From: a virus
Taxonomy: Duplodnaviria > Heunggongvirae > Uroviricota > Caudoviricetes
Length of the DNA stretch: 64,000 nt
Virus record (IMG/VR): IMGVR_UViG_2706794668_000011
Direction: 5' to 3' (one strand)
Shown here: positions 23,626-55,620 of the stretch, in pieces
Layout of the letters: each line of letters opens with the position of its first letter
Position numbering within the stretch: position 1 is the stretch's first letter
The notes under the pieces: generated by a model
Told to the model about the DNA's origin: nothing
Databases searched by the model: none
The model's input: only the letters and a program-made list of their open reading frames with translations
Position numbers and translations under genes: made by a program

Positions 23626-23651
23626 AGGCGGTGCAATGCACCGCCTTTTTA
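23626..23651 (+). terminator. rho-independent terminator
   Basis: aggcggtg/caccgcct hairpin followed by ttttt; lies 1 nt beyond the apbC stop on the other strand. Confidence 0.65.
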
Positions 23652-24752
23652 TCACACTGCGCGGAATGCGATTTCGCCAGGTATTACTTCACCTTGCCAA
23701 TACATTTGGGCAGCAACGCGATCTGCGAGGTCACGATAAATAGCCGTAAATTCGCTATCTGGACGACTAATAACGGTTGGTGTTCCGTTATCCAGATCTT
23801 CACGAAGAGAGATATGAAGTGGCATTTGGCCTAACAACTGCGTGTTGTATTTCTCGGCCAGTTTCTGTGCTCCACCGGTGCCAAAAATTGGCTCGTGATG
23901 ACCGCAGTTACTGCAAATATGCACACTCATGTTTTCAACGATACCCAGTACCGGCACTTCGACTTTTTCGAACATCACAATGCCTTTCTTCGCATCGATC
24001 AGCGCGATGTCTTGCGGCGTAGTTACCACAACCGCACCAGTTACAGGAATGTTCTGCGCCAGCGTCAATTGAATATCACCAGTGCCCGGTGGCATATCGA
24101 GAACGAGATAGTCCAGATCAGGCCACAGTGTTTCCTGCAACATCTGCATCAGCGCCTTGCTCGCCATCGGTCCACGCCACACCATTGCATTGTCATCGGT
24201 GACCAGATAACCAATAGAGTTGGTTGCCAGGCCATGAGACATGATAGGTGCCATGTGAGTACCGTCCGGTGAGGTTGGACGTTGGTTTTCCGCGCCCAGC
24301 ATGGTTGGAATTGATGGACCATAGATATCGGCATCCAAAATACCAACTTTCGCACCTTCAGCAGCCAAAGCCAGTGCCAAGTTTACTGCTGTGGAGGATT
24401 TACCCACGCCGCCCTTGCCTGAGCTGACGGCGATAATGTTCTTAACGCCATTAATGCCTGGTTGGTTTTTGACGCGCTTAAGCGTGGCAATGTTGTACGA
24501 CAGCTTCCAGTCAATAGCCTTTGCGCCAGTGATACGGAGCAGATCACCACTACATTGCTCTTTCAGGTCTTCAAAAGGCTTATTCCACACGAAAGGCATG
24601 ATTAGTTCGACATGCAGTGTGTCATCCATCAACGCAACATGGTGTAACGCTTTAAGCGTAGTCAAGTTGTGTTTCAGGGTTGGGTGCTGAAAATTAGCCA
24701 GCGTACCGGCTACCATTGCTCTCAGGGCATCCGGCGATTTGGACTCGCTCAT
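23652..24752 (-). CDS. apbC: Fe-S cluster carrier ATPase ApbC/Mrp, host-type
   Basis: 366 aa; very close match over the full length to enterobacterial Mrp as I remember it, including the deviant Walker A SGKGGVGKS and the CxxC motif. Confidence 0.9.
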   Translation of the reverse strand: MSESKSPDALRAMVAGTLANFQHPTLKHNLTTLKALHHVALMDDTLHVELIMPFVWNKPFEDLKEQCSGDLLRITGAKAIDWKLSYNIATLKRVKNQPGINGVKNIIAVSSGKGGVGKSSTAVNLALALAAEGAKVGILDADIYGPSIPTMLGAENQRPTSPDGTHMAPIMSHGLATNSIGYLVTDDNAMVWRGPMASKALMQMLQETLWPDLDYLVLDMPPGTGDIQLTLAQNIPVTGAVVVTTPQDIALIDAKKGIVMFEKVEVPVLGIVENMSVHICSNCGHHEPIFGTGGAQKLAEKYNTQLLGQMPLHISLREDLDNGTPTVISRPDSEFTAIYRDLADRVAAQMYWQGEVIPGEIAFRAV

Positions 24753-24909
24753 CCCGTCTCCTTTATTTTAATTTGCGCAATTGTCGCCTTGTAGTGTACT
24801 CCAGCTACGACATTTAATCATTTATGAGAAATGCTGTTATCACATGGCAGACATAAGGCCATTTTGTTACTATCAAGCCCCTTTTCACTACAAAGAAGTA
24901 ATGCCTACT

Positions 24910-26943
24910 ATGACCCAAGTCGCGAAGAAAATTCTGGTGACGTGCGCGCTGCCGTACGCTAACGGCTCAATCCACCTCGGCCATATGCTGGAGCACATCC
25001 AGGCTGATGTCTGGGTTCGTTACCAGCGAATGCGCGGCCACGAGGTTAATTTCATCTGTGCCGACGATGCCCACGGTACGCCAATCATGCTGAAAGCACA
25101 GCAGCTTGGTATCACACCGGAACAGATGATTGGCGAAATGAGTCAGGAACATCAGACTGATTTCGCAGGCTTTAACATCAGCTATGACAACTATCACTCG
25201 ACGCACAGCGAAGAGAACCGTCAGTTGTCCGAGCTTATCTACTCTCGCCTGAAAGAAAACGGTTTTATTAAAAACCGCACCATCTCACAGCTGTACGATC
25301 CGGAAAAATGCATGTTCCTGCCGGACCGTTTTGTAAAAGGCACCTGCCCGAAATGTAAATCCCCGGATCAATACGGCGATAACTGCGAAGTCTGCGGCGC
25401 GACCTACAGCCCGACTGAATTGATCGAGCCGAAATCGGTGGTTTCTGGCGCTACGCCGGTAATGCGTGATTCTGAACACTTCTTCTTTGATCTGCCCTCT
25501 TTCAGCGAAATGTTGCAGGCATGGACCCGCAGCGGTGCGTTGCAGGAGCAGGTGGCAAATAAAATGCAGGAGTGGTTTGAATCTGGCCTGCAACAGTGGG
25601 ATATCTCCCGCGACGCCCCTTACTTCGGTTTTGAAATTCCGAACGCGCCGGGCAAATATTTCTACGTCTGGCTGGACGCGCCGATTGGCTACATGGGTTC
25701 TTTCAAGAATCTGTGCGACAAGCGCGGCGACAGCGTAAGCTTCGACGAATACTGGAAGAAAGACTCCACCGCCGAGCTGTACCACTTCATCGGCAAAGAT
25801 ATCGTTTACTTCCACAGTCTGTTCTGGCCTGCCATGCTGGAAGGCAGCAACTTCCGCAAGCCGACCAACCTGTTTGTTCACGGCTATGTGACGGTGAACG
25901 GCGCGAAGATGTCCAAGTCTCGCGGCACCTTTATTAAAGCCAGCACCTGGCTGAATCATTTTGACGCTGACAGCCTGCGTTACTACTACACTGCGAAACT
26001 CTCTTCGCGCATTGATGATATCGATCTCAACCTGGAAGATTTCGTTCAGCGCGTGAATGCCGATATCGTGAACAAAGTGGTTAACCTGGCCTCCCGTAAT
26101 GCAGGCTTTATCAACAAGCGTTTTGACGGCGTGCTGACAAGCGAACTGGCTGACCCGCAACTGTACAAAACCTTTACTGATGCCGCTGAAGTGATTGGCG
26201 AAGCATGGGAAAGCCGCGAATTTGGTAAAGCTATCCGTGAAATCATGGCATTGGCTGACCTGGCTAATCGCTATGTCGATGAACAGGCTCCGTGGGTGGT
26301 GGCGAAGCAGGAAGGTCGCGATGCAGATCTGCAGGCGATTTGCTCTATGGGCATTAACCTGTTCCGCGTGCTGATGACGTACCTGAAACCGGTACTGCCG
26401 AAACTGACTGAACGTGCAGAAGCATTCCTGAATACAGAACTGACCTGGGATGGTATCCAGCAACCGCTTCTGGGCCATAAAGTGAATCCGTTCAAGGCAC
26501 TGTATAACCGTATCGATATGAAACAGGTGGAAGCACTGGTGGAAGCATCCAAAGAAGAAGTGAAAGCCACAGCTGCACCGGTAACTGGCCCACTGGCTGA
26601 CGAACCGATTCAGGAAACCATCACCTTTGACGACTTCGCCAAAGTTGACCTGCGTGTGGCGCTGATTGAAAACGCGGAGTTTGTCGAAGGTTCTGACAAA
26701 CTGCTTCGCCTGACGCTGGATCTCGGTGGTGAAAAGCGTAATGTCTTCTCAGGCATCCGTTCCGCTTATCCAGATCCACAGGCACTGATTGGTCGTCACA
26801 CCATTATGGTGGCTAACCTGGCACCACGTAAAATGCGCTTCGGTATCTCTGAAGGCATGGTGATGGCTGCCGGTCCTGGCGGGAAAGATATCTTCCTGTT
26901 AAGCCCGGATGCTGGTGCTAAACCTGGCCACCAGGTTAAGTAA
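24910..26943 (+). CDS. metG: methionyl-tRNA synthetase, host-type
   Basis: 677 aa from [10 protein letters not shown]; HLGH and KMSKS motifs, zinc knuckle CPKCK...CEVCG, C-terminal tRNA-binding domain; near-identical to E. coli MetG as remembered. The track ORF starting at 24781 is an upstream in-frame extension. Confidence 0.95.
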
Positions 26944-26990: not shown

Positions 26991-27027
26991 ATATAGACAC
27001 AATCCCTCCTGATTTACACAAGCCCTA

Positions 27028-27050
27028 AAACAATTTGTTTTCTACCTTTT
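27028..27050. promoter_or_regulatory. motif A copy in reverse orientation; right copy of the 23-bp direct repeat
   Basis: aaacaatttgttttctacctttt identical to 23090-23112. Confidence 0.6.
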
Positions 27051-27074
27051 GTTGATTGAGATAATAAGCCACAT

Positions 27075-27094
27075 AAGAAAACAACTTGTTTTGG
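27075..27094. promoter_or_regulatory. motif A copy (aagaaaacaacttgttttgg)
   Basis: 11 nt upstream of ATG 27105. Confidence 0.6.
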
Positions 27095-27104
27095 AGTAGT
27101 TGAA

Positions 27105-27404
27105 ATGTTGAACATTACCCAAGCCTACCAGGTGGCATTGATCAGTTCATCTCATACATCAGAGGAAGATGCTCGCCGATTCATGATCGCAAGCAATGAG
27201 CTGGATTGGGTTTCACAAATTGAGTACGGTTGCATTGTCCACGCCGGGTTACAGGACGATGACTGGAAAGATGAGTTGCGTCGATATGGTATATCCGAGG
27301 GTGCGATTGCGAACATTCAGAAAGTACTTGATGTAGGCTTTAACTCTGTACATTTTGATTGTGGCGCACCGGTCGTTGAAGGGCTTGAGTGCTGGCAATG
27401 GTAA
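27105..27404 (+). CDS. hypothetical protein
   Basis: 99-aa ORF with RBS ggag. Confidence 0.5.
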   Translation: MLNITQAYQVALISSSHTSEEDARRFMIASNELDWVSQIEYGCIVHAGLQDDDWKDELRRYGISEGAIANIQKVLDVGFNSVHFDCGAPVVEGLECWQW

Positions 27405-27440
27405 TCCGGCAATCGCTTCATACTAGATAACGGAGAATTT

Positions 27441-27626
27441 ATGCTTAAAGAAGACTCATATCTACTAAAGGCGCTTGAAATGAGTGGCGTTGAACCTACA
27501 GTGAAAAACGCTCACGATATCTACCTTCAGTTTTCGACAGAGCTGAAACAGCTCATAAATAAATATGGAGTGAACGACTCCAGCGTCAAAGCCATGATAG
27601 ATGATGAATTAGACCATCTCATCTAA
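27441..27626 (+). CDS. hypothetical small protein
   Basis: 61-aa ORF with RBS cggag. Confidence 0.4.
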   Translation: MLKEDSYLLKALEMSGVEPTVKNAHDIYLQFSTELKQLINKYGVNDSSVKAMIDDELDHLI

Positions 27627-27749
27627 TCAAACCGTTGATAATGGCGGTCACAATTTGATTCTTTTCTATAAGAACCCGTTGATCGCCACTACTACCCTCC
27701 CATACCAGCAATCACATCATTAAATATCAATAGGTTATGGTTGTTTATA

Positions 27750-28500
27750 CCAATAAGAAAACAACTAAATAACAGATCAACGAAACATCAACGCTTTCTC
27801 CCGATTTGGTCTAAAAAATTGACGTTATCACACATCACTTCTTATACCCGTAATTCTACGCAGCAGATAGCGCCACAGCGTCCAAATTTCACCACAGACG
27901 ACTCAACACACTACCAACAAAAACACACGCTCAAAATCGCTCCCGTTGCGTTACACAACCATATAAACAACTTATTTTCAGGCATAACAAAACAACCAAA
28001 TAACACATATGCCATTACCCAAAACAACCAACCTCTTTATGGCAGGCTACCGAAAAGACCCACCTCTTCTCCCCAGGCTACCGGACAACCAACCTAACTT
28101 TCACAGGCAATCCGAAAACATTCATACGCGCGATACCCACGACACGCCATTACCCAAACAGCGAAGAAACACCTGAACCGCTGAAACCCTAACGAAGCCT
28201 GTAACCGCAAGGTTTCTCTCAATCCCAAAAGACACGAAACATAACAATCACGGGAAACGCCATTACCCAATACACGAATAACTACAAAAGCCTTCACACA
28301 CTCCAGACAAACAACTCAAACACAATAACGAAAGCAATCGCCCACCTGCCATTACTCCATACACGGAGAAGAACAATCACCAAAACGACGAGAACACCCC
28401 CATAGAAGAACCACCGCAAAACTAACGAAACCACATACACCGACAGAGAAAACAACACACCCAATTCACCAACAGAAATAGTCGCCGTATAGAACATTCT
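27750..28500 (+). repeat. ~750-bp AC-rich, G/T-poor low-complexity tract with dispersed short repeats; probably non-coding
   Basis: Strong strand compositional skew; gccattacccaa-type repeat at 28011, 28146, 28259 and 28349; aggctaccg-type repeat at about 28041, 28074 and 28104; ORFs here look like compositional artefacts. Confidence 0.6.
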
Positions 28501-28682
28501 GGAAGGAGTGAGCATTAACGCCTATAGAGAGGTTGAGACAGATAAAACACAACATGTATAGCGAAGAAGCCAGGTATGTATAAGTGGAGAGGGAAGGAGG
28601 GGGGTCGCCTCCTTTTTCGTATTTATTCAACTCCTGATTTTATCCCCCGTAACACCCCCTACGGTCAGCCTTCGGTCCATAC

Positions 28683-28821
28683 AGGGAAAAGGTTGCATCC
28701 AGCTACAGAAACGGCTGGGTTGCCTTCGGGGGAACGGCTGGGGATTTTCAGGGAAACGGTCGAGTTGCCTGTGTGGATTTCGGGAAAAGGCTCGATGCCG
28801 GTTCTGGAACGGCGGCGTACC
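28683..28821. repeat. iteron-like tandem array (six ~20-bp repeats at ~22-23-bp spacing)
   Basis: agggaaaaggttgcatcc / cagaaacggctgggttgcc / cgggggaacggctggggat / agggaaacggtcgagttgcc / cgggaaaaggctcgatgcc / ctggaacggcggcgtacc. Confidence 0.7.
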
Positions 28822-29193
28822 GGTATAGCGAGAGAGAGTTGCAGCTACCCACCTGTAATGTGCGGGAAGAAGAGAGGCGCTCACGTGCAGGCTGACTTGC
28901 TTACCGCTGGATTCCCTCTGAATGCCAGATACAGCGTAATTGTGCCAGACAGCCAGCGGGTCACAATCGATTTCAGTAGGTTTTCGGGGAGAGGATTATT
29001 CTACCCACCAGCCCCGCGGCGCGCGTAGAGCAGAATATCGTAAATACTGGCTCTCGTGTCGTTCCCGGATATTCACTGCCCAGCCTGGCTTTCCCGACAT
29101 AAAATCCTTTTTCGCCTTTATCTTATTGCGATAATAACACCAACAAGTAAACAGCATATTTAGACGTTATAGAAACGAAGTGAGGATGAAGAG

Positions 29194-29412
29194 ATGATTA
29201 AGATGCCTGTGACGGTTGAGGTGTGGGGCGTGGATTCCCTGGCTGAGTGTCTGGATGCAGTGGGGCCGGAGTTGTACCGCAAGTTGTGGTCGTTCGTCCC
29301 GGCAGAAGGGGAATCGCCCAAAGGGAAGGATATCTGGCACCTGCTGAGTGAAGATGAAAAGCGGGAGCTGGTGGGCGCGGTACACAGCGAGTTCCCGGAC
29401 GACCAAGATTAA
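29194..29412 (+). CDS. hypothetical small protein
   Basis: 72-aa ORF with RBS gagga. Confidence 0.45.
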   Translation: MIKMPVTVEVWGVDSLAECLDAVGPELYRKLWSFVPAEGESPKGKDIWHLLSEDEKRELVGAVHSEFPDDQD

Positions 29413-29482
29413 GAGTGAGGCCACCAGCACGGTGGCTTTTGTCGCTATTAACCTCGGGGCAGCGCAGCACCGTAACGATATA

Positions 29483-29542
29483 CTTTGTGGCCGTTTTCTT
29501 ACTGGTATTGTTTACGTAATTCAGAAAACAACATGTTTAAGG
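29483..29542 (+). promoter_or_regulatory. promoter-operator cassette, copy 1 (putative -35 ttgtgg, -10 tattgt, then motif A)
   Basis: ~60-bp direct repeat of 29968-30027 (~85 percent identical); motif A cagaaaacaacatgtttaa at 29522-29540. Confidence 0.55.
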
Positions 29543-29550
29543 ATTGCTTT

Positions 29551-29880
29551 ATGTTTGCAAATATCGACATCAACCAAATTAAGAAATTGACTCAAAAAGA
29601 GTTTGACCAGTTTTATGAGCTGGAAGGTTGGTCTTCCACTCTGATTAATTCAAGATGGGTGCTGGAGCTGATGACTCGTGATGACGCACCTGCTTTGATG
29701 ATTTGCGACATGGGTGAAGATGCTGACTTTATGGATATGAGCGAATTTTGTGTGGACACATACAACCGCAGCCAGAAGTACTACTTCACATGCGATAGCG
29801 AAAATGACGTGATTTCTAAGGTCTATCTTCACCTCGTCCAGCATTGGGACGTTCAGGACTTCCTTGCGATATTCGCGTAA
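29551..29880 (+). CDS. hypothetical protein
   Basis: 109 aa from ATG preceded by aagga. Confidence 0.5.
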   Translation: MFANIDINQIKKLTQKEFDQFYELEGWSSTLINSRWVLELMTRDDAPALMICDMGEDADFMDMSEFCVDTYNRSQKYYFTCDSENDVISKVYLHLVQHWDVQDFLAIFA

Positions 29881-29967
29881 GCCCAACCAAAGCCAGCATT
29901 GCTGGCTTAACTTCATCTGTAGCCGCAGGGAAGAACCTGCATATCGCTCATGCGCCTGATCAATATG

Positions 29968-30027
29968 CTTTGTAGCCGTTTTCTTACTGGTATTATTTAC
30001 GCCATTGAGAAAACAAGTTGTTTACGG
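29968..30027 (+). promoter_or_regulatory. promoter-operator cassette, copy 2 (putative -35 ttgtag, -10 tattat, then motif A)
   Basis: Direct repeat of 29483-29542; motif A gagaaaacaagttgtttac at 30008-30026. Confidence 0.55.
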
Positions 30028-30034
30028 AGTTGTG

Positions 30035-30346
30035 ATGAAAAAATCATTGGTTCTTGGTCTGGACAAAGACCAGAAGAGAAAAGAGAAGCCTGCACTGGTT
30101 GCTCAATTAACTTTGCTGGACATCGTTGCCAATGGAACCTCTATTCGTCTGTTCCGTGAAACAGCGGTGTCTTTCGATAAAAACACCTTTACTCGTTATG
30201 TAATGAATGTTCGTCGCCAGCGTGGAAAAGGCTGGATGGCATTTCAAAGAATGTGGCCGGAACATCAGCTCGAACTGGCTTTGATGGAAGTTAACCGCGT
30301 GGCCCAGCAAGAGATTCAGAGAGCATCAGTGATGGCAATAGCCTGA
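30035..30346 (+). CDS. hypothetical protein
   Basis: 103 aa from ATG preceded by ggag. Confidence 0.5.
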   Translation: MKKSLVLGLDKDQKRKEKPALVAQLTLLDIVANGTSIRLFRETAVSFDKNTFTRYVMNVRRQRGKGWMAFQRMWPEHQLELALMEVNRVAQQEIQRASVMAIA

Positions 30347-30471
30347 TAATGTGCAAGTGGTAATTAGTCGACAGTACGACAGCCCCGCCATCCTTACGGG
30401 GTTTTTTGTATTGTAAGTACATACCTATGTCTATAAAATAGAAAAATAACCAAGACACTATGGAGAGTGAT

Positions 30472-30867
30472 ATGAGCGTTAAACGAGAAAACCTGACAGT
30501 TGATGTCTACTATGCTTCAGAAAGCGCCGAAGGTAAGAATGTAGCTAAAATCACCGTCGTTACGTACAACACCGAAACTGGAACTGAAGTTCAGGCAAGT
30601 ACTATTGTGCGTAAAGGAGATACATCAGGCGGGGAATATGAGGCGCAATATCAGTCCATTTTTGATGCAACGGACCCGTTGTTGTTGAAAATTGAAAGTT
30701 ACTTCCGTAAGGTGAATAAAGAGGTGTTTGAAACCATGATGAATATGGTTAACACCGTATTCGCTTCCAGTCTGAACACTAACACTACCTGGATTGGTCA
30801 GTATGGTCTGCGCATTACCTCCGGCATTCCTGCTGACACCTTAATCCCTGAAAGCGTATTCGCTTAA
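30472..30867 (+). CDS. hypothetical protein
   Basis: 131 aa from ATG preceded by ggagag. Confidence 0.5.
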   Translation: MSVKRENLTVDVYYASESAEGKNVAKITVVTYNTETGTEVQASTIVRKGDTSGGEYEAQYQSIFDATDPLLLKIESYFRKVNKEVFETMMNMVNTVFASSLNTNTTWIGQYGLRITSGIPADTLIPESVFA

Positions 30868-30876
30868 TCCTCTTTG

Positions 30877-30905
30877 AATGGCGCGTAAACCGCGCCATTT
30901 TCTTA
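30877..30905 (+). terminator. rho-independent terminator
   Basis: aatggcgcg/cgcgccatt stem followed by ttcttatg. Confidence 0.7.
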
Positions 30906-30911
30906 TGCCCG

Positions 30912-30931
30912 ATAACAATTTGTTTTCTGCC
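30912..30931. promoter_or_regulatory. motif A copy in reverse orientation (ataacaatttgttttctgcc)
   Basis: 55 nt upstream of ATG 30986. Confidence 0.55.
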
Positions 30932-30985
30932 TTATCTGATTTGTGAAAATGCTTTCACTGAAAGCAACTTGATAAGGAAACCATC

Positions 30986-31360
30986 ATGGGACTTGATATC
31001 TACATTGAGACGCAACCAAAAAACGATCTGAATAACGATGCATCCAGAAAGAAGGTTGCTTACTTCCGTAAGTTCAATGCTCTCTTTGGGTGGATGGAAC
31101 GCAACGTAGGTGAAGTCAAAAATTGTGAGCTTTTAGAATTAACGATGAATGACATTTGTGCTCTGAAAGCTCATTTGATGCACATGAACGAAAGTAACTG
31201 CGAAGAGTACTTACCTACCTGTGAAGGTTTTTTCTTCGGCAGTCAGGAGTACGATGAAGGGTACTGGCATGACGTGGGGGAGTTGAAAAAACTTGTGGAA
31301 GAGCTGATTAAGAACCACGACTTTCACAATAACAGACTGACCTTCTGCGCCTGGTGGTAA
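30986..31360 (+). CDS. hypothetical protein
   Basis: 124-aa ORF with RBS aagga. Confidence 0.5.
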   Translation: MGLDIYIETQPKNDLNNDASRKKVAYFRKFNALFGWMERNVGEVKNCELLELTMNDICALKAHLMHMNESNCEEYLPTCEGFFFGSQEYDEGYWHDVGELKKLVEELIKNHDFHNNRLTFCAWW

Positions 31361-31362
31361 AT

Positions 31363-31506
31363 ATGGGCGATTTCAAGAAACGCCTGAAGGAAAGAGCCGA
31401 GATAGTCAGAAAGCAAAACGCCTCTTCTGTCATCAGATACGCAAGGCAGTTTAGTCGCAACAACAAATCAGTTGAGGAAAAGATCCTTAGCGTAATCGGT
31501 CGATAA
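31363..31506 (+). CDS. small basic protein (47 aa), not in ORF track
   Basis: ATG 2 nt after upstream stop; Arg/Lys-rich; followed by a strong hairpin at 31512-31536. Confidence 0.3.
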   Translation: MGDFKKRLKERAEIVRKQNASSVIRYARQFSRNNKSVEEKILSVIGR

Positions 31507-31554
31507 TTATTAAGGCCACCACTGCTGGTGGCCTTAAATGACCATCCTGTTTCC

Positions 31555-31633
31555 CGCAGGCTAAAAACACCAACCTCTTACCTCCAGGCAACCGACAAAC
31601 CCACCTGTTCCCGTCCGGCTACCGCAACTTTCC
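31555..31633. repeat. second iteron-like family (aggc-t/a-accg-type units, ~30-bp spacing)
   Basis: aggctaaaaacacc / aggcaaccgacaaac / cggctaccgcaactt; same family as repeats at about 28041-28120. Confidence 0.55.
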
Positions 31634-31672
31634 ACTTTGACGCCTTATTCGTACAACGATAATTAACGCCAA

Positions 31673-31693
31673 CAAGAAAACAATTTGTTATTT
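31673..31693. promoter_or_regulatory. motif A copy (caagaaaacaatttgttattt)
   Basis: 18 nt upstream of ATG 31711. Confidence 0.55.
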
Positions 31694-31710
31694 ACGATAA
31701 GGAATTAATC

Positions 31711-32193
31711 ATGAATTTTATCGCTACTGTAAACGCACCCGCACATGGCAATATCGCTGTAACGTTCTCTGACATTGAAAAACGAGTACTTGGTGCATGG
31801 CGCGACAATGAGACGGTAGAACTGTCAGCACAAGAAAAATGCATTATTGCACGCGACATCATTGGCAATCGTCGTTACTCGCGGGTATTTGAGAAAGCGT
31901 ATGTGGTAAATTCTGGATTCGGAACGTTCGTCTTTCCGGTGCGCTCCGGGCGATTCTGCCAGTCCAAGCTGATTGAGTTCGCTACGCAGATTTCTGTCTG
32001 GATTAAAACTCAATCGTCGTTCAAATTTTCCGACGATGAAGCAGTATCGCAGGGGATGCGGATCGCCAACAATGCAATTAAATGCAAAAACATTACGTAT
32101 ACCGCTGGCGTTGATACATGGAAACTGTTTTGCGCTAACTTTATGCTGAATGTATACGCAAGCAACCGCATCCACATCCTTGATGGTGTGTAA
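31711..32193 (+). CDS. hypothetical protein
   Basis: 160-aa ORF with RBS aagga. Confidence 0.5.
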   Translation: MNFIATVNAPAHGNIAVTFSDIEKRVLGAWRDNETVELSAQEKCIIARDIIGNRRYSRVFEKAYVVNSGFGTFVFPVRSGRFCQSKLIEFATQISVWIKTQSSFKFSDDEAVSQGMRIANNAIKCKNITYTAGVDTWKLFCANFMLNVYASNRIHILDGV

Positions 32194-32202
32194 CTGAGAA
32201 GA

Positions 32203-32225
32203 GGGCCAGTAACGGCCCTTTCTCT
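32203..32225 (+). terminator. rho-independent terminator
   Basis: gggcc/ggccc stem followed by tttctct. Confidence 0.6.
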
Positions 32226-32242
32226 ATAGCCACCAGATGCCG

Positions 32243-32329
32243 CAGGGAAATTTTCAGAAACGGCGAGGAACGTATTCATGAACCGACGGGGAACGGCCAG
32301 GATTTTTTCGGGAAACGGCTGCATTCGCC
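32243..32329. repeat. second array of the gggaaacgg-type iteron family
   Basis: cagggaaattttc / cagaaacggcgaggaacg / cggggaacggccaggatt / cgggaaacggctgcattcgcc; homologous to units at 28683-28821. Confidence 0.65.
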
Positions 32330-32593
32330 TTTATGTAGAAAAAACATCGGGAAGCTGGTGGAATCCAACCAGCGGTTGTCGGACAGGTGAGCGGGGAAAA
32401 TTATGATGACTTTCGTCGCCTGAGACATCCAGATTTCTTTCGTAGCGTAATCGCATACGTGATTAAGTGGTGTGATTATGTGAAAAATCACGCGCACATA
32501 ATACGCGAGCGGATACGGAACAAAACAAAATGCCGATCCGCGCCGACAAATAAACGCGGATCACATAGCAAGACTAAAAGCCAATGATTAACT

Positions 32594-32808
32594 ATGCGCT
32601 ATAGCGCAATATAACGCGTTTTAAGCGCGTTAATGTGTTAAGTAATGGGTATGTACTGGCAAGGATATAAAAGCGCGTCTATGGCGTTATTTTGGCGCTT
32701 ATTTTTATGTTGTTGGAGTGAGTCAAAGACAATAAAAAACGCGCCATCATTGGCGCGTTATGGTGGGAGTATTGGAAACGAAAAAAGCGCCCACTATGGG
32801 CGCTATTG
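32594..32808. repeat. cluster of short GCGC-core hairpins in AT-rich DNA
   Basis: tgcgcta/tagcgca 32594-32607; aacgcg/cgcgtt 32614-32632; aacgcgcca/tggcgcgtt 32738-32760; agcgccca/tgggcgct 32786-32804 (flanked by A- and T-runs, terminator for the minus-strand gene ending at 32812); a near-identical hairpin recurs at 33281-33301. Confidence 0.6.
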
Positions 32809-32811
32809 TTT

Positions 32812-33039
32812 TTATTTTTCTAAGCGAATATTAAAACCAGCGTTTAAAAATTCTTGAAGCATTAAAGTAACATCTGCTTCATTGATTCCTGCGCGCGCTC
32901 TATGTTCTACGTCATTGATGTTTATTTTAAACGTTGTTTCATCAACCACTTCAGAACTTAGAGCATATCCAGCTAAACCAGCAATATCATAAACAAGAGT
33001 ATGATTATTGATATTTACGCCAGAGATGAAAATAACCAT
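32812..33039 (-). CDS. hypothetical small protein
   Basis: 75-aa ORF with canonical RBS aaggag 8 nt upstream on the minus strand. Confidence 0.45.
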   Translation of the reverse strand: MVIFISGVNINNHTLVYDIAGLAGYALSSEVVDETTFKININDVEHRARAGINEADVTLMLQEFLNAGFNIRLEK

Positions 33040-33059
33040 GATTAAGCTCCTTAAAAAAA

Positions 33060-33263
33060 TTAAATAGAATTATGAAGTTTTCCGATTAATGCGCTTAAAC
33101 GTAAGTATTCACGTTTACGCTTGCAATCTCGTTTGCTGTTAAGCAAATCAGAAAACGTAAAATTTAATTGGTCGCGTTGCGCGATTAAATCATTGATTAA
33201 TTCTAGTTTATAAGCGCGATACTTTGCGCGATATTCCGCGCGGATCTTGTCATAGCTGACCAT
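33060..33263 (-). CDS. hypothetical small basic protein
   Basis: 67-aa ORF with canonical RBS aaggag; Lys/Arg-rich and helical in character. Confidence 0.45.
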   Translation of the reverse strand: MVSYDKIRAEYRAKYRAYKLELINDLIAQRDQLNFTFSDLLNSKRDCKRKREYLRLSALIGKLHNSI

Positions 33264-33312
33264 TTTTTAAAGCTCCTTTAAAGCGCCCATAGTGGGCGCT
33301 TGATTCCATTAA

Positions 33313-33963
33313 TTACGCTTTGAAAGCGTCAGCTAGATAATTGTAGAAATCATTCTTGATAAAGCGATATTGCTGTGTACCAGCTTTGGCGCTTCCCATT
33401 CCTTTGACTTTCTCAACAAGTCCGAGACGTTCGCAAAGATTGATTAGCTGGTTAGCTTGAGTATAGCCAGCGTCCAATTTAATTTCACACGCTTTTTTAG
33501 CTTCATTCATTAAATCGAAAACAGCGCCATTCGTGAACGTGTCGATCTCGTCGTTAATCATATCGATTAAAGCGAATACACGAGATCCAGACATATCAGC
33601 GACGGAATAAACACATTTTCCAGCTTTAATTGATTTAACCAGATAAACCAGTTTTTCCAGTGAATAACTATTAGTCATAGCGTCACGAAAAAATACTTCT
33701 GGCGCTTGTTTGCTTGCTTTAATCGCATAGTAGAAAACAGAGCATAATTTTTCGTCTTCTACAGCGTTTACGACGTTGTTGATGAAGTAAGCAAGTTTAG
33801 TGGTCGCAGCTTGCATATTTGCTTTGTCTGCTTTAGTGTGCGTACCATTTTTATAATGTTCGTTATATGTTTGAGTTGCCAGATCTGCTTTTTCGCGCAG
33901 TTCGTCGGATACAATAGATGCAGCTTCAATGATGGACTTTTTAGAAATGATAATGTTAGCCAT
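33313..33963 (-). CDS. hypothetical protein
   Basis: 216-aa ORF with RBS aagga. Confidence 0.5.
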   Translation of the reverse strand: MANIIISKKSIIEAASIVSDELREKADLATQTYNEHYKNGTHTKADKANMQAATTKLAYFINNVVNAVEDEKLCSVFYYAIKASKQAPEVFFRDAMTNSYSLEKLVYLVKSIKAGKCVYSVADMSGSRVFALIDMINDEIDTFTNGAVFDLMNEAKKACEIKLDAGYTQANQLINLCERLGLVEKVKGMGSAKAGTQQYRFIKNDFYNYLADAFKA

Positions 33964-34216
33964 GATTTTATTCCTTAGTATAAATATTAAAATTTAACTC
34001 AAGAAAGAAAGTGTTTTGCACTCGTTCCTGATGCGTTCAATTATCGATACGCGAAAAAAGATTGCAAGTGTTTTTTTAAGTTTTTTTGCAGGGATGAAAG
34101 TCCTAGAAATAAATGTTAGATCGTCGAGGGTGTTCCCTAAATAAATAATCGATTCCGGCTTTAGACCTTATATATTTATACGGGGTAGAATTGAAAGAGT
34201 ATAAAATGAATGGCAT

Positions 34217-34250
34217 GTAAAATAATAACCGGACTTAGCCGGTTATTACC
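34217..34250 (-). terminator. rho-independent terminator (minus strand)
   Basis: taataaccgg/ccggttatta stem followed by a U-run on the minus-strand transcript. Confidence 0.7.
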
Positions 34251-34260
34251 CTTATAGAAA

Positions 34261-34782
34261 TTAAAACGGAAGGATTCGTTCAACCCAATCGAAGAAAATA
34301 AGTATTTTTCTACCGTCTTCCAACTTAAGTGTGACTAGACAGGCGTCAACGCCATCTGACGTTCCCTCAATTTCGCGACCGTCTGCCATGTAGACCCTTA
34401 TAGATTTGCCGTTTTGGTAAGCCTGACGACATATCTTAAAAAAGTCACGACGTGATGGCTGATTAACCATCTGTTCATTGTTTAGCGTTAGTCGACCTGT
34501 GAATGAAGTGTCAACCTCTTCTATGCCCGACTCAATTGTGCTAATGCGCTCAAGAGGGAGCCTTATACGATTTGTGTTGCTAAGCGGATCTGGTGTGAGG
34601 TTCAGCTTATTTCTTGCGCTCAATAGCCCGTAGACATACATGCAAAACACTTGGCCGTCTTCGAGAGTGACTCTTACAGGAAATTTTGCACTCCGCCAGA
34701 AGAGCAAGGTACGTTCAGCATGTTCGTAGTCTCGCGGCCATACTTCAGCCGGTATGCCGTAGGTGATGTCCAATGTTCTCAT
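34261..34782 (-). CDS. hypothetical protein
   Basis: 173-aa ORF; 4-nt overlap with upstream gene suggests co-translation. Confidence 0.5.
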   Translation of the reverse strand: MRTLDITYGIPAEVWPRDYEHAERTLLFWRSAKFPVRVTLEDGQVFCMYVYGLLSARNKLNLTPDPLSNTNRIRLPLERISTIESGIEEVDTSFTGRLTLNNEQMVNQPSRRDFFKICRQAYQNGKSIRVYMADGREIEGTSDGVDACLVTLKLEDGRKILIFFDWVERILPF

Positions 34783-35372
34783 TCTGATACTCTTAGAGGT
34801 GTTTTCAGCAACCCAAATTTAAATTCTTTGTTACCAACGACAAAGAAGGGAACCTCAACATAGATTTTTTTATCGACGGATTTAGAGTTCGCTGTTTTCT
34901 GTATGTCACGAACGATACGTTTTGAGGTATTTTCATCGATAAACAATACCTTTCCACTTGTATTCCCTTCAGCCTTGGCGTAAGTAACGATAGGCTCTTC
35001 ATTGCCAACCCTAATGTTTACTTGGCAACCTGTTGTAGCCATTTCATCACAGTAAAGTGTGCCGTCTTGAACTTCCAAAACAATTCCAGATGGCTTCATG
35101 GCTTCGTCAGAGCTTACATTAACGTTTTCTGGTACAGCGGTTCCGTTAATTTGCAACCGTAATCTTTCTTTTCCTGCATTAAGTATTGTTTCTTCTGCGT
35201 TATCTGAGAATCTGAACCAGACTGGTTGAATCAGACCTCGTGATTCGTATTTTAGTACGTCTTCAGAAGTATACATGCTGTACGTTTTTTGCATGTCGGA
35301 GACGATATCTGACAACGCATTGGCGGAAAATGACGAGAGGTATATACAAGCAAGAAGTAACGAACGTTTCAT
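34779..35372 (-). CDS. secreted or periplasmic protein of unknown function
   Basis: 197 aa; N-terminal Sec-type signal peptide MKRSLLLACIYLSSFSANA with AxA cleavage motif. Confidence 0.55.
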   Translation of the reverse strand: MKRSLLLACIYLSSFSANALSDIVSDMQKTYSMYTSEDVLKYESRGLIQPVWFRFSDNAEETILNAGKERLRLQINGTAVPENVNVSSDEAMKPSGIVLEVQDGTLYCDEMATTGCQVNIRVGNEEPIVTYAKAEGNTSGKVLFIDENTSKRIVRDIQKTANSKSVDKKIYVEVPFFVVGNKEFKFGLLKTPLRVSE

Positions 35373-35460
35373 TTTTATACAGCGATTATTGCAAAGTAGA
35401 ATTATAAATATCCAATAGTCTCAAACGATAAGTTTTCAACTGTAAATAGCAGACGTGTTT

Positions 35461-35498
35461 TCTCTAAAAGCTGTGCGGCAAAGGCGTTGTTGCCGCAC
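35461..35498 (-). terminator. terminator-like hairpin (minus strand)
   Basis: gtgcggcaa/ttgccgcac stem with short U-run. Confidence 0.45.
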
Positions 35499-35553
35499 TC
35501 TGTCTATTAGCTCTTCAAGTCTGGCAATTCTGAAATTGACTAAGAATCCAATA

Positions 35554-35832
35554 TTACGGCAGTTTGCTTAGAATTTGCTCTAAATCTTCCTTTGTCATAT
35601 TAGAGTTCTCATAGATGCGCATGATTTTCTCACGAGCCTTAGCAGAGACTCCAACGGCAGATGAAACTTTGTCAAATTCAGCCATCGTCATCGTCTCCAG
35701 AATGGTATTGATAACTTCAGCCTTAGACATTTTGATGTTTTTTTCTTTTAGTTTCATTTGAAACTTTCCAAGTTTGTCATTGGCCTTATCGGACAATGCC
35801 ACCTGACAATAAGTTGTTTTCTTTTCGCTCAT
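35554..35832 (-). CDS. hypothetical protein
   Basis: 92-aa ORF starting 3 nt after the helicase stop. Confidence 0.45.
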   Translation of the reverse strand: MSEKKTTYCQVALSDKANDKLGKFQMKLKEKNIKMSKAEVINTILETMTMAEFDKVSSAVGVSAKAREKIMRIYENSNMTKEDLEQILSKLP

Positions 35833-35834
35833 AA

Positions 35835-37394
35835 CTAATCTCGTTTCAGAACTCCAAAATCGAATGCGCCATCAATAGGCAATACACCTTCTGCAAAGCC
35901 AGGTGTGGTGTCGATGATGTGTTTTCGCTCATAAGAGTGAGACAACAGGTATTTGTTGCTAATGTCAATGAAATCAGTGATAAAACACACGTTTGCCTGA
36001 TTCTTCTTGGCTCGTAAGCCACGACCGACACGCTGCCTCATTTCAACTTCTGCTTTCCCACCACCAGCAAGAATGACCGCACCAACGCTTGGCACATCAA
36101 CACCGACATCCAGAATAGTCGAGCCTATTAAAACATCTATTTCTCCAGACGCTAAACTGTTCAGCTTTGCTTGCCTTGTCGCCTGGTTAGATTCCCCATA
36201 GATGAAGTCAACTCTAAGGCCGGACTCTTTCATCATTTCCATCAGGATTTGCCCGTGGCGTTTAAGGCGAACCAGAGTCATACAATTGAGAGAATGTTGC
36301 TTATAGAGCAATGCTTCGCGCACAATGGCCTCGTTACGTCCCAAATTATACACGATCCCCAACTGATAAGCCTTTTGGTAGGCGGTGCTCATACCAACTC
36401 TAAAATTGAGGTGTTTGTTGGCAAGTTCGGCCTTGATTCTGGCCTCGTCTGGCTTGTAGGCAACTTTATGATAAAGGAAGTACGGCTTTGCCAGAATGCC
36501 TCGATCAATCAGATACTTTTCTGTGACTTTAATTTCAATTCGCCCGGCCACCGCCATCAGGCGCATGTTGGCTTCCGTCGAATCCTTCATGAACGGCGTG
36601 GCTGTAAGCGCCAGACGATAGTCTGCGTTCACACATAATCTGGCGATGTCATAGAAATTTGAGCCTGAAGACTCATGCGCCTCTTCCAGAATAAGAAGAG
36701 AGACACTTGAAAGGAAGCGTTTCACCAACTCCCGACGTTTGAGGTGGTAGCTTTTCTTATCTGGTGTTGCATCGCGTGGTGGTTCTTCGAGGAAACTTGC
36801 AAGAGTTTGAACTGTAGCGACGTTGATATGTCGTGATACCTGGAACTCACCCGAGCCAATGACTCCAACCTTTTGGTCTTTTAACCACGGTTCGCCATTT
36901 TTGGCGCGGTAGTCGATGGATCTCTGGAAGTTTTCGGCCATTTGAAACATCAGAACAGAGCGGGTTGTTAAAAATAATGTCATTCGACCGATACGTGCAG
37001 CTGCTTTGCAGGCAACGTTAGATTTCCCGCCACCAGTAGCGATCTGCGCAATCATCATTCCCTCTCGAACCAGTGTTTCCACAGTCTGATCCTGATACGC
37101 ATAATCAGGATTGTATGGGAATGGGTTAACCGCCGGATTTGGTTTACCAAGCGCCGGGGCTTTGTCTTTGCGGATATGAACACATTTGATGCCCGCCTTG
37201 TTCAAATTAGCCGCCACGGGCTTGGCAAAGCCAGCAGGGAACGAGTTTTTGCTCCAGTTGAACATTGTGCTTGTGCCCTTCCAGTCGCCAGCCTCGACTT
37301 CGTAGCTCAACATTTGCTGCACCAGTTGCTTTACCTTGTCATCTGCGCCAGAAATAAGCGCATTTACTGCGTTAGATACAATCCGAACAGTCAT
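35835..37394 (-). CDS. superfamily-2 DNA/RNA helicase (DEAH-like)
   Basis: 519 aa; motif I ATGGGKS, motif II LEEAHE, motif III LTATPF, motif VI QRVGRGLR. Confidence 0.8.
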   Translation of the reverse strand: MTVRIVSNAVNALISGADDKVKQLVQQMLSYEVEAGDWKGTSTMFNWSKNSFPAGFAKPVAANLNKAGIKCVHIRKDKAPALGKPNPAVNPFPYNPDYAYQDQTVETLVREGMMIAQIATGGGKSNVACKAAARIGRMTLFLTTRSVLMFQMAENFQRSIDYRAKNGEPWLKDQKVGVIGSGEFQVSRHINVATVQTLASFLEEPPRDATPDKKSYHLKRRELVKRFLSSVSLLILEEAHESSGSNFYDIARLCVNADYRLALTATPFMKDSTEANMRLMAVAGRIEIKVTEKYLIDRGILAKPYFLYHKVAYKPDEARIKAELANKHLNFRVGMSTAYQKAYQLGIVYNLGRNEAIVREALLYKQHSLNCMTLVRLKRHGQILMEMMKESGLRVDFIYGESNQATRQAKLNSLASGEIDVLIGSTILDVGVDVPSVGAVILAGGGKAEVEMRQRVGRGLRAKKNQANVCFITDFIDISNKYLLSHSYERKHIIDTTPGFAEGVLPIDGAFDFGVLKRD

Positions 37395-37435
37395 AAACCT
37401 CTTTCCTTAGTGCCTTTTGTATGTTATTTGGCTAT

Positions 37436-55160: not shown

Positions 55161-55202
55161 CTATCGACTGCCCCGGTCGGGGCAGTCTCACAAGGATGTG
55201 AG

Positions 55203-55538
55203 ATGGAAAGACAAACGTTTAATTGGTATCCAGATTACGAATCTGAAAAGAGCGTAAAACCGAATGTAACGGTACTTAATTTTGGTGATGACTACGAGCA
55301 GCGACAGGCTCAAGGTCTTAATCGTATTAAAGAAGAATGGTCGTTAACCTTTACCAGATCATACAACGAAATTAATGCAATCGATGACTTCCTTACTGAG
55401 CGATCAGGTGTTGAATCGTTCTATTGGGTTAATCCAAGAGGCAAGCAGATTGTAGTTGTATGTGACAGTCATACGGTCAAGAGATATCAGGGGTACTGTG
55501 TCTTAACTGCTACATTCAGACAAGTATTTGAGGCTTAA
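55203..55538 (+). CDS. minor tail protein, lambda gpM-like
   Basis: 111 aa; FGDDYEQR...GLN pattern as in lambda M (FGDGYSQR...GLN). Confidence 0.7.
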   Translation: MERQTFNWYPDYESEKSVKPNVTVLNFGDDYEQRQAQGLNRIKEEWSLTFTRSYNEINAIDDFLTERSGVESFYWVNPRGKQIVVVCDSHTVKRYQGYCVLTATFRQVFEA

Positions 55539-55544
55539 GTATCT

Positions 55545-55570
55545 GGATAAGTAAGTACTAATTTACTATC
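55545..55570. promoter_or_regulatory. motif B variant (ggataagtaagtactaatttactatc)
   Basis: 7 nt after the M-like stop; followed by hairpin 55576-55598. Confidence 0.4.
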
Positions 55571-55620
55571 ATTGTGGCGCTGACAGGATGTCAGCGCCTA
55601 CTTATTTCAAGGATGAAACA

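Follow-up and report, generated by a model that had tools for sequence, protein, structure and literature searches.

The region at positions 32594–35832 of the Caudoviricetes record IMGVR_UViG_2706794668_000011 is probably a leftward regulatory block of a phage-plasmid of the SSU5/pHCM2/pMT1 family, built around a FljA-family protein with a predicted tandem Hfq-like fold and furnished with two cassette sites, rather than a free-standing accessory island. The reading draws on gene content, family membership, predicted fold, conservation, the independence of the small cassettes and the positions of hairpins. The stretch of DNA analysed, called the window below, is 64,000 nucleotides (nt) long, and coordinates refer to it unless stated otherwise. 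The block contains six open reading frames (ORFs), all on the minus strand and named here by the length of their products in amino acids (aa): the 92-aa gene (35554–35832; PHROG 1466), which lies 2 nt downstream of the helicase gene; the 197-aa gene (34779–35372; PHROG 18942); the 173-aa gene (34261–34782), which encodes the FljA-like protein; the 216-aa gene (33313–33963; PHROG 1513); the 67-aa gene (33060–33263; PHROG 6145); and the 75-aa gene (32812–33039; PHROG 1585). The 197-aa and 173-aa genes overlap by 4 nt as ATGA (tcat at 34779–34782). AAGGAG ribosome-binding sites occur 7 nt before the ATG of the 75-aa gene and 9 nt before that of the 67-aa gene, while the 197-aa ATG has no clear Shine-Dalgarno sequence upstream. 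ORFs, overlap and ribosome sites had all been listed in a preliminary description, and all are present. Its further statement that the block is AT-rich is true of the 75-, 67-, 216-, 197- and 92-aa genes (G+C fraction 0.33–0.40, against 0.46 for the window) and fails for the 173-aa gene (0.458).

Identity and setting of the element

Over 32200–37400 the sequence agrees completely (100% identity) with that of four plasmids of Shigella sonnei, ∼107–109 kb in size, and it is 91–98% identical to many plasmids of Escherichia coli, E. albertii and E. marmotae. Matches in phage collections include the Escherichia phages CMS-2020a, PhiR41_1 and Cyrano, the Salmonella phage SSU5 and several Klebsiella phage-plasmids. 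On the strength of the S. sonnei identity and these matches, the window is assigned to an SSU5-family phage-plasmid, in the group that contains pHCM2 (S. Typhi) and pMT1 (Yersinia pestis). An annotated S. sonnei record already calls all six ORFs, five as hypothetical proteins and the 173-aa product as a “transcriptional regulator”. The block is flanked by rightward small early genes (29197–32193) on one side and by the helicase gene (35835–37394) on the other, and the helicase gene is divergent from the operon of ParB-like, terminase and structural genes. Elsewhere in the window, at ∼23650–26941 (53339–56630 in CP104415.1), are the host-like genes apbC (mrp) and metG (methionine-tRNA ligase), with a G+C fraction of 0.50–0.52; this stretch looks like a captured chromosomal fragment.

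Conserved backbone and variable sites

The block was compared across 72 IMG/VR loci, fetched with an invariant 19-nt anchor beside the terminator T1 described below (four of these loci are chance hits), together with 13 annotated phage and plasmid loci. Every block gene was scored in each locus by tblastn, giving about 80 loci for presence or absence and 68 with a complete 216-aa gene. The genes for the helicase, the 92-aa protein, the FljA-like protein and the 216-aa protein were found wherever the locus is long enough, the sole exceptions being plasmids disrupted by insertion sequences (IS). Relatives holding the 92-, 173- and 216-aa genes include pMT1, pHCM2 and Klebsiella phage-plasmids. 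The ratio of nonsynonymous to synonymous substitution rates (dN/dS) is 0.05–0.10 for these three genes, within a range of 0.05–0.36 over all block genes, and by this measure the three are under purifying selection. Judged from the loci surveyed, the family has a fixed backbone, made up of the 92-aa, FljA-like and 216-aa genes together with the non-coding region rich in hairpins, and variation is confined to two cassette sites. The first, between the 92-aa and FljA-like genes, almost always holds one or more genes for lipoproteins or signal-peptide proteins, here the 197-aa gene; the second, bracketed by two copies of a GCGCCCA-NNN-TGGGCGC hairpin, holds either or both of the 67-aa and 75-aa genes, or none.

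Insertions of ISKpn26, ISAeme15, IS1 and IS1541 are found in or beside the block, with E. coli pLR-46_1, a plasmid of E. hormaechei and the pMT of Y. pestis Pestoides F among the carriers. From pLR-46_1, the segment running from the 216-aa gene to the helicase has been removed.

The FljA-like protein

The 173-aa protein is a clear member of the Pfam family PF03614 (FljA, Flag1_repress), with an E-value of 1.4e-68 and a score of 230.5 bits against a cut-off of 24; residues 5–170 align to positions 1–170 of the 170-position profile, and the same family is assigned to 80 of the 80 homologues found. This had gone unnoticed earlier, when the protein was described as no more than the partner of the overlapping 197-aa product. 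It is 35% identical (E 1.5e-29) to a “phase-1 flagellin repressor” encoded directly 3′ of a flagellin gene on the S. Senftenberg plasmid NZ_CP038609.1, and has the motifs YG..AE.WPR.Y, DFF.IC, DGR and DWV.RI in common with this flagellin-linked FljA.

An AlphaFold2 model of the protein, built with 40 homologues (predicted local distance difference test, pLDDT, 84; predicted template modelling score, pTM, 0.79), consists of two consecutive units, each of one helix and five strands. In the predicted model, five antiparallel strands with a strong bend come after an N-terminal helix, which is the arrangement of the Sm/Hfq-like fold. The C-terminal half also gives weak Hfq/LSM sequence matches (Pfam E ∼0.08, PDB E ∼1), which are not significant. 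Because the modelled units and these weak matches agree, and fit the published mode of action of FljA, the protein looks like a tandem Sm/Hfq-like RNA binder. Hfq itself has one domain and forms a hexamer, whereas here two Sm-like domains are predicted within one chain, without significant sequence similarity. WYL-type Sm-like domains of DNA-binding regulators match as well. At the sequence level a search for internal duplication gave nothing beyond a match of nine residues in the equivalent strand (E 0.14), and sequence and profile searches for relatives of solved structure gave none for the 197-, 216-, 173-, 92- and 75-aa proteins. No FljA paper was among the top-ranked results of literature searches that combined FljA with Sm-like terms.

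By tblastn, 831 plasmid records carry an FljA-like protein, 821 of them at ≥80% coverage, including 341 from Klebsiella, 62 from Yersinia (pMT1) and six from Shigella. Klebsiella, Y. pestis and Shigella hosts are non-motile. In a search of 5.8 billion proteins, homologues on large contigs are nearly all on contigs of ∼100–115 kb, the size of a phage-plasmid. For the gene as a whole dN/dS comes to ∼0.10, and a comparison of a Klebsiella element with pMT1 gives 0.11; the gene is present even in distant relatives at 26–41% identity. One chromosomal homologue (P0073, 48% identity) was considered as the FljA of a flagellin islet and rejected, its neighbours looking like a degraded SSU5-like element.

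Canonical FljA, including FljA(z66) of the linear plasmid pBSSB1, blocks translation of fliC mRNA post-transcriptionally (PMC2652032). By analogy with Salmonella FljA, the protein described here would bind an mRNA leader and block its translation. Like the Salmonella fljBA protein and FljA(z66), it is a full-length family member of similar length with shared motifs. Its gene, in contrast, is neither 3′ of a flagellin gene nor in an invertible or phase-variable locus; it is a phage-plasmid core gene, kept in non-flagellate hosts and apparently co-transcribed with genes for exported proteins. Neither the block nor the rest of the annotated plasmid contains a flagellin gene. The upstream neighbour here is the 197-aa gene, and in relatives it is a lipoprotein gene or a divergent promoter; none has a fljB-type gene at this place.

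The alternative to be taken most seriously is that the FljA-like protein represses translation of the host flagellin gene fliC, so that lysogenic conversion would lower motility, flagellin immunogenicity or susceptibility to flagellotropic phages. Membership of the family over the full length, conserved motifs included, the known action of canonical and plasmid-borne FljA on fliC (PMC2652032), the many flagellate hosts (E. coli, Salmonella, Enterobacter, Citrobacter) and an operon shared with moron-type genes all speak for such a role. It is nonetheless unlikely, given the missing fljB-fljA-type context, the modest identity to flagellin-linked FljA and an intact gene under purifying selection in the Klebsiella, Yersinia and Shigella records. 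Full-text literature searches also returned no paper that ties FljA homologues to phage-plasmids, or SSU5-family elements or their FljA homologue to motility. Because the gene is kept under purifying selection in non-flagellate hosts, its main target is more likely to be a transcript of the phage-plasmid, or another host transcript, than flagellin alone.

Exported proteins at the first variable site

The N-terminus of the 197-aa protein, MKR-SLLLACIYLSSFS-ANA|LSD, has the features of a Sec signal peptide, as had been proposed: two basic residues in the first eight, a hydrophobic core that peaks at 2.11 over 10 residues, and a cleavage motif of the AXA type. An FSANA|(L/V)SD motif recurs in homologues down to ∼50% identity, and the signal peptide is kept in most of them down to ∼46%. 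The mature part has no hydrophobic segment, i.e. it is soluble, and the pair Cys108/Cys116 is invariant in the homologues. The protein is thus predicted to be exported and is probably periplasmic. Its family comprises only 15 clusters, all on contigs of phage-plasmid size, and had no match in Pfam, NCBIfam, PADLOC or PDB. The gene occurs in about 10 of ∼80 loci; PhiR41_1, for example, has an identical FljA allele and no 197-aa gene.

This site, located between the genes for the 92-aa and FljA-like proteins, comes in 38 distinct versions ranging from 120 to 2761 nt, the 120-nt version being the empty site of distant relatives. Nearly all occupied versions carry at least one ORF with a lipobox or signal peptide. 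In SSU5, pMT1 and pHCM2 a 140-aa lipoprotein is encoded directly upstream of the FljA-like gene, while Klebsiella elements, Cyrano and PhiR41_1 have 145-aa and 266-aa lipoproteins on the other strand; a 118-aa signal-peptide protein and the 197-aa family are further contents. In some lineages, among them pHCM2, Klebsiella elements such as pJN2-26 and the surveyed locus L040, an extra signal-peptide ORF of ∼100 aa lies between the FljA-like stop codon and its terminator, so that genes for exported proteins accumulate on both sides of the regulator gene. Because of the contents of this site and the insertion 3′ of the FljA-like gene, the operon is described as a preferred landing site for genes of envelope proteins, following the moron pattern.

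Phage morons and envelope exclusion proteins of prophages, such as Llp of T5 and Cor of phi80 and N15, are the closest comparison. The site resembles morons in its fixed position and in contents that differ between close relatives and are nearly always lipoproteins or signal-peptide proteins, and the 197-aa protein adds its conserved predicted Sec signal peptide and conserved cysteine pair. Unlike morons, which are self-contained units of promoter, gene and terminator, the 197-aa gene shares a terminator and translational coupling with a core regulator gene; a promoter-like site lies at 35414–35385 (such matches occur at chance frequency), and the gene has no terminator of its own and overlaps the FljA-like start codon. 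The protein also resembles none of the known exclusion proteins in sequence or profile searches. The exported proteins would be moron-type envelope modifiers, co-transcribed with the FljA-like gene and expressed in the plasmid state; for the operon as a whole it is the moron pattern that suggests such expression. An envelope-directed role of the 197-aa protein in exclusion or host interaction is plausible on these features.

The 216-aa and 92-aa core proteins

After the helicase, the 216-aa protein is the best conserved of the block, with 84–98% identity across genera and a dN/dS of 0.08. A search for remote homologues gave 23 representatives in 1.84 billion, all of the same narrow family. The predicted model (pLDDT 84.7) has a long N-terminal helical hairpin or bundle and a C-terminal helix-turn-helix with a beta-hairpin wing. 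Fold searches returned only generic helical matches and weak ones to MarR/ArsR or winged helix-turn-helix proteins, and nothing at E ≤ 0.001 in BFVD. As the fold matches are generic or weak, a putative function in DNA binding is offered as no more than a reasonable guess.

The region upstream of this gene (33964–34260) contains a predicted sigma-70-like promoter (TTGCAA-16-GATAAT; 34040–34067, minus strand) with a leader of ∼75 nt. Its −35 and −10 hexamers and the upstream boxes ATTTATTTAGGnAACACCTTCGA and TTTATTTCTAAGACTTTGA are conserved across clades, a distant relative included, and the two boxes are kept even in a relative in which the 216-aa protein is only ∼48% identical; the boxes may be binding sites of a regulator.

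The 92-aa gene is universal in the relatives and has the low dN/dS of 0.05. Its product had no match in Pfam or PDB and no detectable relatives of known function.

The small genes at the second variable site

The 67-aa and 75-aa genes are, on comparative grounds, real genes. Among the 68 loci with a complete 216-aa gene, 23 have the 75-aa gene only, 21 the 67-aa gene only, 16 both and eight neither; SSU5 has the 67-aa gene only, and pMT1 and Cyrano only the 75-aa gene. The 67-aa gene has a dN/dS of 0.07, and its product is basic (isoelectric point, pI, 9.9), helical and without a hydrophobic segment. The 75-aa gene has a dN/dS of 0.36 and occurs as two allele classes, with 82–100% and 43–51% identity; a profile search of its family against PDB gave no match.

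Side by side, the two small genes had been taken for a toxin-antitoxin or immunity pair. They do share traits with type II toxin-antitoxin modules, being adjacent on one strand, 20 nt apart, with strong ribosome sites and one acidic and one basic product. Searches of Pfam, NCBIfam and PADLOC for toxin-antitoxin or defence families gave only matches at noise level (DUF6899, E 0.039; PDC-M47B, E 0.007; Tfx, E 0.017). Unlike the genes of such modules they are found apart as often as together, and the 67-aa protein is highly conserved alone. Because the genes occur independently, and with no family match, the toxin-antitoxin reading was rejected.

In SSU5 (SSU5_119) and in PHROG 6145, the 67-aa family bears the name “MIT family metal ion transporter/CorA”. 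This name was rejected as a propagated misannotation, since the protein is basic and has no hydrophobic segment.

The preliminary description had regarded the entire block as an accessory island of superinfection-exclusion, anti-defence or host-interaction genes, with the small genes as its toxin-antitoxin or immunity-like pair. Several features agree with this: the AT-richness, the separately terminated units, a truly variable slot with exported proteins, the presence of the 197-aa gene in a minority of relatives and the strong ribosome site on each small gene. Against it stand the near-universal occurrence in SSU5-family elements of three of the six genes and the non-coding region, the purifying selection on those three genes, the independence of the 67-aa and 75-aa genes, the lack of toxin-antitoxin or defence matches in PADLOC, Pfam and NCBIfam, and the regulator family of the 173-aa protein. 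The idea is thereby largely refuted for the block as a whole, and as an overall explanation it is improbable. What survives of it is that the block contains a site at which genes for exported proteins of the superinfection-exclusion or host-interaction type are exchanged. A PADLOC scan of the six proteins for defence and anti-defence content had no match. Conserved core instead makes up most of the block, although only one of its genes has an assignable family, so the possibility, raised at the outset, of core genes with assigned functions is borne out in its first half only.

A hairpin repeat flanking the small-gene cassettes

A GCGCCCA-NNN-TGGGCGC hairpin lies 3′ of the 216-aa stop codon in 68 of 68 loci, whichever gene comes next, and is followed by a short U-run and the ribosome site of the next small gene. 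In the window this proximal copy is at 33281–33301 (minus strand; −15.1 kcal/mol), with only UUU before AAAGGAG. A distal copy, directly 3′ of the 75-aa gene at 32786–32804, is the predicted bidirectional terminator T1, with T-runs on both strands (−14.1 kcal/mol). Where both small genes are missing, at least one locus shows just one hairpin, which leads directly into the anchor flank. From the universal hairpin and the single hairpin of the empty site, it follows that the small-gene cassettes sit between two copies of one hairpin.

Two near-identical hairpins had indeed been noticed before. They are real, with loops of 3 nt rather than 4, and are exact reverse complements of each other, AGCGCCCA-CTA-TGGGCGCT and AGCGCCCA-TAG-TGGGCGCT. 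The copies are thus in inverse orientation here, and among relatives, too, the loop is either CTA or TAG on an unchanged stem, a pattern to be expected if inversion or recombination takes place across a palindromic stem. The repeated hairpin would then also serve as a recombination joint for the exchange of small-gene cassettes. The surroundings of T1 are constant as well: the 19-nt search anchor, retrieved as exact matches, consists of the 5′ arm of its stem and the preceding 11 nt, the 3′ arm is unchanged too, and GAAACGAAAAAAGCGCCCA and the T1 stem are identical even in relatives whose proteins are 33–50% identical.

Promoter-early stem-loop (PeSL) cassettes of T4-type phages, in which stem-loops flank variable small ORFs (PMC2839356, PMC4122927), are organised in a similar manner. 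Both have a conserved stem-loop on either side of small variable ORFs, with insertions, deletions or replacements exactly at the repeat. PeSL elements differ in being present in many copies in the hyperplastic regions of virulent T4-type phages, whereas there are two copies at one site in a temperate phage-plasmid here, and no promoter-like hexamers adjoin either copy.

Terminators and transcription units

The GCGC hairpin array reported earlier at 32594–32808 and 33281–33301 is present, as five sites in the first range and one in the second. The frequency of GCGC is 42 per kb in 32594–32808 against 3.9 per kb in the whole window, and of the eight GCGC/CGCG hairpins with a perfect 7-bp stem that occur in the 64 kb, four fall within 32.6–33.3 kb. 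Over 77 loci, perfect GCGC/CGCG hairpins with stems of at least 6 bp number 4.6 per kb in this 650-nt region, compared with 0.25 per kb elsewhere. For terminator-like sites the count is 13, where 6.4 would be expected. At 7518–7771 the sequence is masked or unresolved (254 N), which inflates naive hairpin counts and lowers the apparent G+C of that 1-kb bin.

Starting from the rightward side, the upstream plus-strand 160-aa gene has a terminator at 32196–32224 (−17.7 kcal/mol, z −3.6), in which GGGCC/GGCCC changes in a compensatory manner to GGGGC/GCCCC in relatives. Two further hairpins lie just outside the range described before (32475–32502 and 32535–32562). Next are two adjacent GCGC/CGCG hairpins, a palindrome at 32595–32608 and a stem-loop at 32612–32632; their position is kept while the sequence differs between clades, and outside this clade a plus-strand TTTTTT comes after the second. 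A weak terminator-like hairpin with a T-run on the plus strand (GGCGTTATTTTGGCGCT TATTTTT; 32675/32683–32699) is not better than shuffled sequences (z −0.95), and has as its counterpart in relatives a stronger AACGCG/CGCGTT hairpin. T2 at 32738–32759, a predicted back-up terminator for leftward transcription (minus strand), has a perfect 9-bp stem followed by UUUUUUAUU (−14.8 kcal/mol, z −3.7); the stem is essentially invariant, with 28 or 29 of 29 sequences agreeing at every pair, and the loop varies. In the same 29 diverse sequences the T1 stem, too, is essentially invariant.

Beyond the small genes, the operon of the 197-aa and 173-aa genes has a terminator at 34219–34252 (minus strand; −15.3 kcal/mol, z −4.8) that is conserved in all clades, and the operon of the helicase and 92-aa genes one at 35473–35498 (minus strand; 9-bp stem, −17.8 kcal/mol, z −4.0). 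The earlier impression of separately terminated units is therefore supported, with a stable hairpin 3′ of each (−14 to −18 kcal/mol, z −2.7 to −4.8). Terminator geometry, i.e. a GC-rich stem with a U-tract at the end of a unit, is found at 32786–32804, 32738–32759, 34219–34252, 35473–35498 and 32196–32224. Weaker candidates are 33281–33301, with its short U-tract, 32595–32632 (z −1.3) and 32675–32699. The hairpin at 33281–33301 may be a weak terminator or an attenuator running into the ribosome site of the next gene, and its role is uncertain.

Four transcription units are proposed from this layout. The helicase and 92-aa genes would form the first, read leftward. In the second, the exported 197-aa protein would be translationally coupled to the 173-aa FljA-family protein, from a predicted promoter at 35385–35414 (minus strand; extended −10, TGGATA-18-AATAAT with TG) that matches the consensus weakly. 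The third would be the 216-aa gene, whose product has a winged-helix-like C-terminus. The 67-aa and 75-aa genes would make up the fourth, which transcription probably enters by reading through the weak hairpin 3′ of the 216-aa gene and which ends in two strong terminators.

On the simplest interpretation the hairpins are a terminator stack at a convergent junction: stacked, mostly bidirectional intrinsic terminators that would insulate the rightward early transcription from the leftward transcription of the block. Like ordinary bidirectional Rho-independent terminators, they have GC-rich stems with an A-run and a T-run directly 3′ of stop codons, between convergent units. Unusual here are the stacking of 3–5 hairpins in ∼220 nt, the strong sequence conservation, and the inverse duplication of one hairpin around a cassette site.

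Repeat arrays in the adjacent non-coding DNA

The 620-nt gap between the 160-aa and 75-aa genes is found in 770 plasmid records; among the 40 that were listed, 34 have no gene annotated there. Small conserved ORFs in 32.2–32.6 kb were considered and excluded, because 1–2-nt indels between clades occur within the conserved stretch. The 5′ half of the gap contains an iteron-like array (array B, 32239–32330) of four phased (T)TTC(G/A)GGGAAACGGCTGG units with spacings of 22, 11 and 22 nt, and a second array of the same motif, about six units spaced 21–29 nt, is located at 28684–28820. The motif has six matches where 1.6 are expected, a number reached by none of 100 shuffles. In array B the repeat cores are invariant across 11 diverse relatives and recognisable even in the most distant ones. 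The layout of two arrays bracketing the small early genes is itself conserved in SSU5, pHCM2, Cyrano, elements of Klebsiella and Citrobacter, and distant relatives. Since the gene for the plasmid initiator RepB is ∼35 kb away, outside the window, the arrays are not an obvious plasmid origin; by their arrangement they could be a lytic origin, a set of operators or binding sites of the 216-aa protein.

Close to the second array, ∼900 nt without an annotated gene (27640–28560) are strongly A/C-rich on the plus strand (AT skew 0.28) and contain four GCCATTACCCAA-type repeats (at 28010, 28146, 28259 and 28348) and three tandem 31-nt units, with no Rfam match.

The arrays lend some weight to the notion that the 3′ side of the block belongs to an element working at the level of DNA, for example an operator set or an origin of lytic replication. 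Its phased GGGAAACGGC repeats would serve as binding sites for a protein of the phage-plasmid, perhaps the 216-aa protein, and the hairpins would be part of the element rather than simple terminators. In its favour are the conservation of both arrays, the repeat spacing in multiples of ∼11 nt, non-coding DNA better conserved than the neighbouring 160-aa protein, the retention of motif and hairpin flank in relatives at 33–50% protein identity, the winged-helix-like domain of the 216-aa model and the location of RepB elsewhere. The hairpins, however, show the classic geometry of terminators, A- and T-runs included, and their positions coincide exactly with the ends of genes, and there is no initiator-like gene between the arrays; for the 3′ side as a whole this explanation is therefore doubtful.

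A broader conjecture, with rather poor odds of being right, would make the FljA family at heart one of phage-plasmid regulators. The 173-aa protein would then be the element's post-transcriptional switch, binding a phage-plasmid leader (for instance the conserved one of 75 nt on the 216-aa gene, or that of a transcript for lytic growth or replication) and helping to hold the plasmid-prophage state; the GGGAAACGGC arrays and the 216-aa protein would form the DNA-level half of the control region. The phase-variation repressor FljA, as known from Salmonella and E. coli, would have branched off from this family and become dedicated to flagellin.

Very unlikely is a structured regulatory RNA encoded by the hairpin-rich region, for example an immunity small RNA like c4 of P1 or CA of N15, and possibly a partner of the Hfq-like protein. 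An RNAalifold analysis of 11 sequences had suggested a three-way structure at ∼32595–32700, with several compensatory and G.U pairs favouring the plus strand, and the region is kept without an annotated gene in the 770 plasmid records. With 29 sequences the complex structure at 32.59–32.70 kb was not upheld, the covariation term being −1.39 with just two pairs showing double changes; the compensatory changes go back to one or two clade splits, and the 1–2-nt indels exclude coding yet do not demonstrate RNA. No Rfam family reached its gathering score, and at E ≤ 1 the only matches were sub-threshold, terminator-like ones at 32731–32818, with none in 27000–29400.

Points against a leftward regulatory block

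Several observations weigh against the preferred reading, a leftward regulatory block around an Hfq-like FljA-family protein. The Sm-like fold comes from a predicted model, and Sm-like or WYL domains are also found in DNA-binding regulators such as DriD and BrxR; RNA binding, translational repression and a target transcript are thus predicted properties of the protein, and the wording of the public records, “transcriptional regulator”, would suit DNA binding. Promoter consensus matches are not above chance (12 found, 12.6 expected). The tract of only three U residues at 33281–33301 makes the role of that hairpin as a terminator uncertain, in vivo termination being deduced from the hairpins generally, and the proposal of recombination at the hairpin is drawn from comparative patterns. 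Finally, the E. coli K-12 fliC leader matched the window at chance level (best 22.3 bits, shuffle mean 23.5), a result that decides neither way on a phage-plasmid target.

Significance

The genes of the block are already annotated in hundreds of public records, and its architecture of core genes, moron slot and terminators is a familiar one, so that current understanding is not overturned. SSU5-family phage-plasmids are common in clinical Enterobacteriaceae, among them pMT1 of Y. pestis, pHCM2 of S. Typhi and the carriers of CTX-M and KPC in E. coli and Klebsiella. The exported-protein slot upstream of the FljA-like gene is a place to look for exclusion or host-interaction functions. The most interesting element of the block is the FljA-family protein with its predicted double Hfq-like fold, which is universally kept, even in hosts without flagella; it could be a post-transcriptional regulator of genes of the element or of the host, and is a candidate that would be cheap to test.

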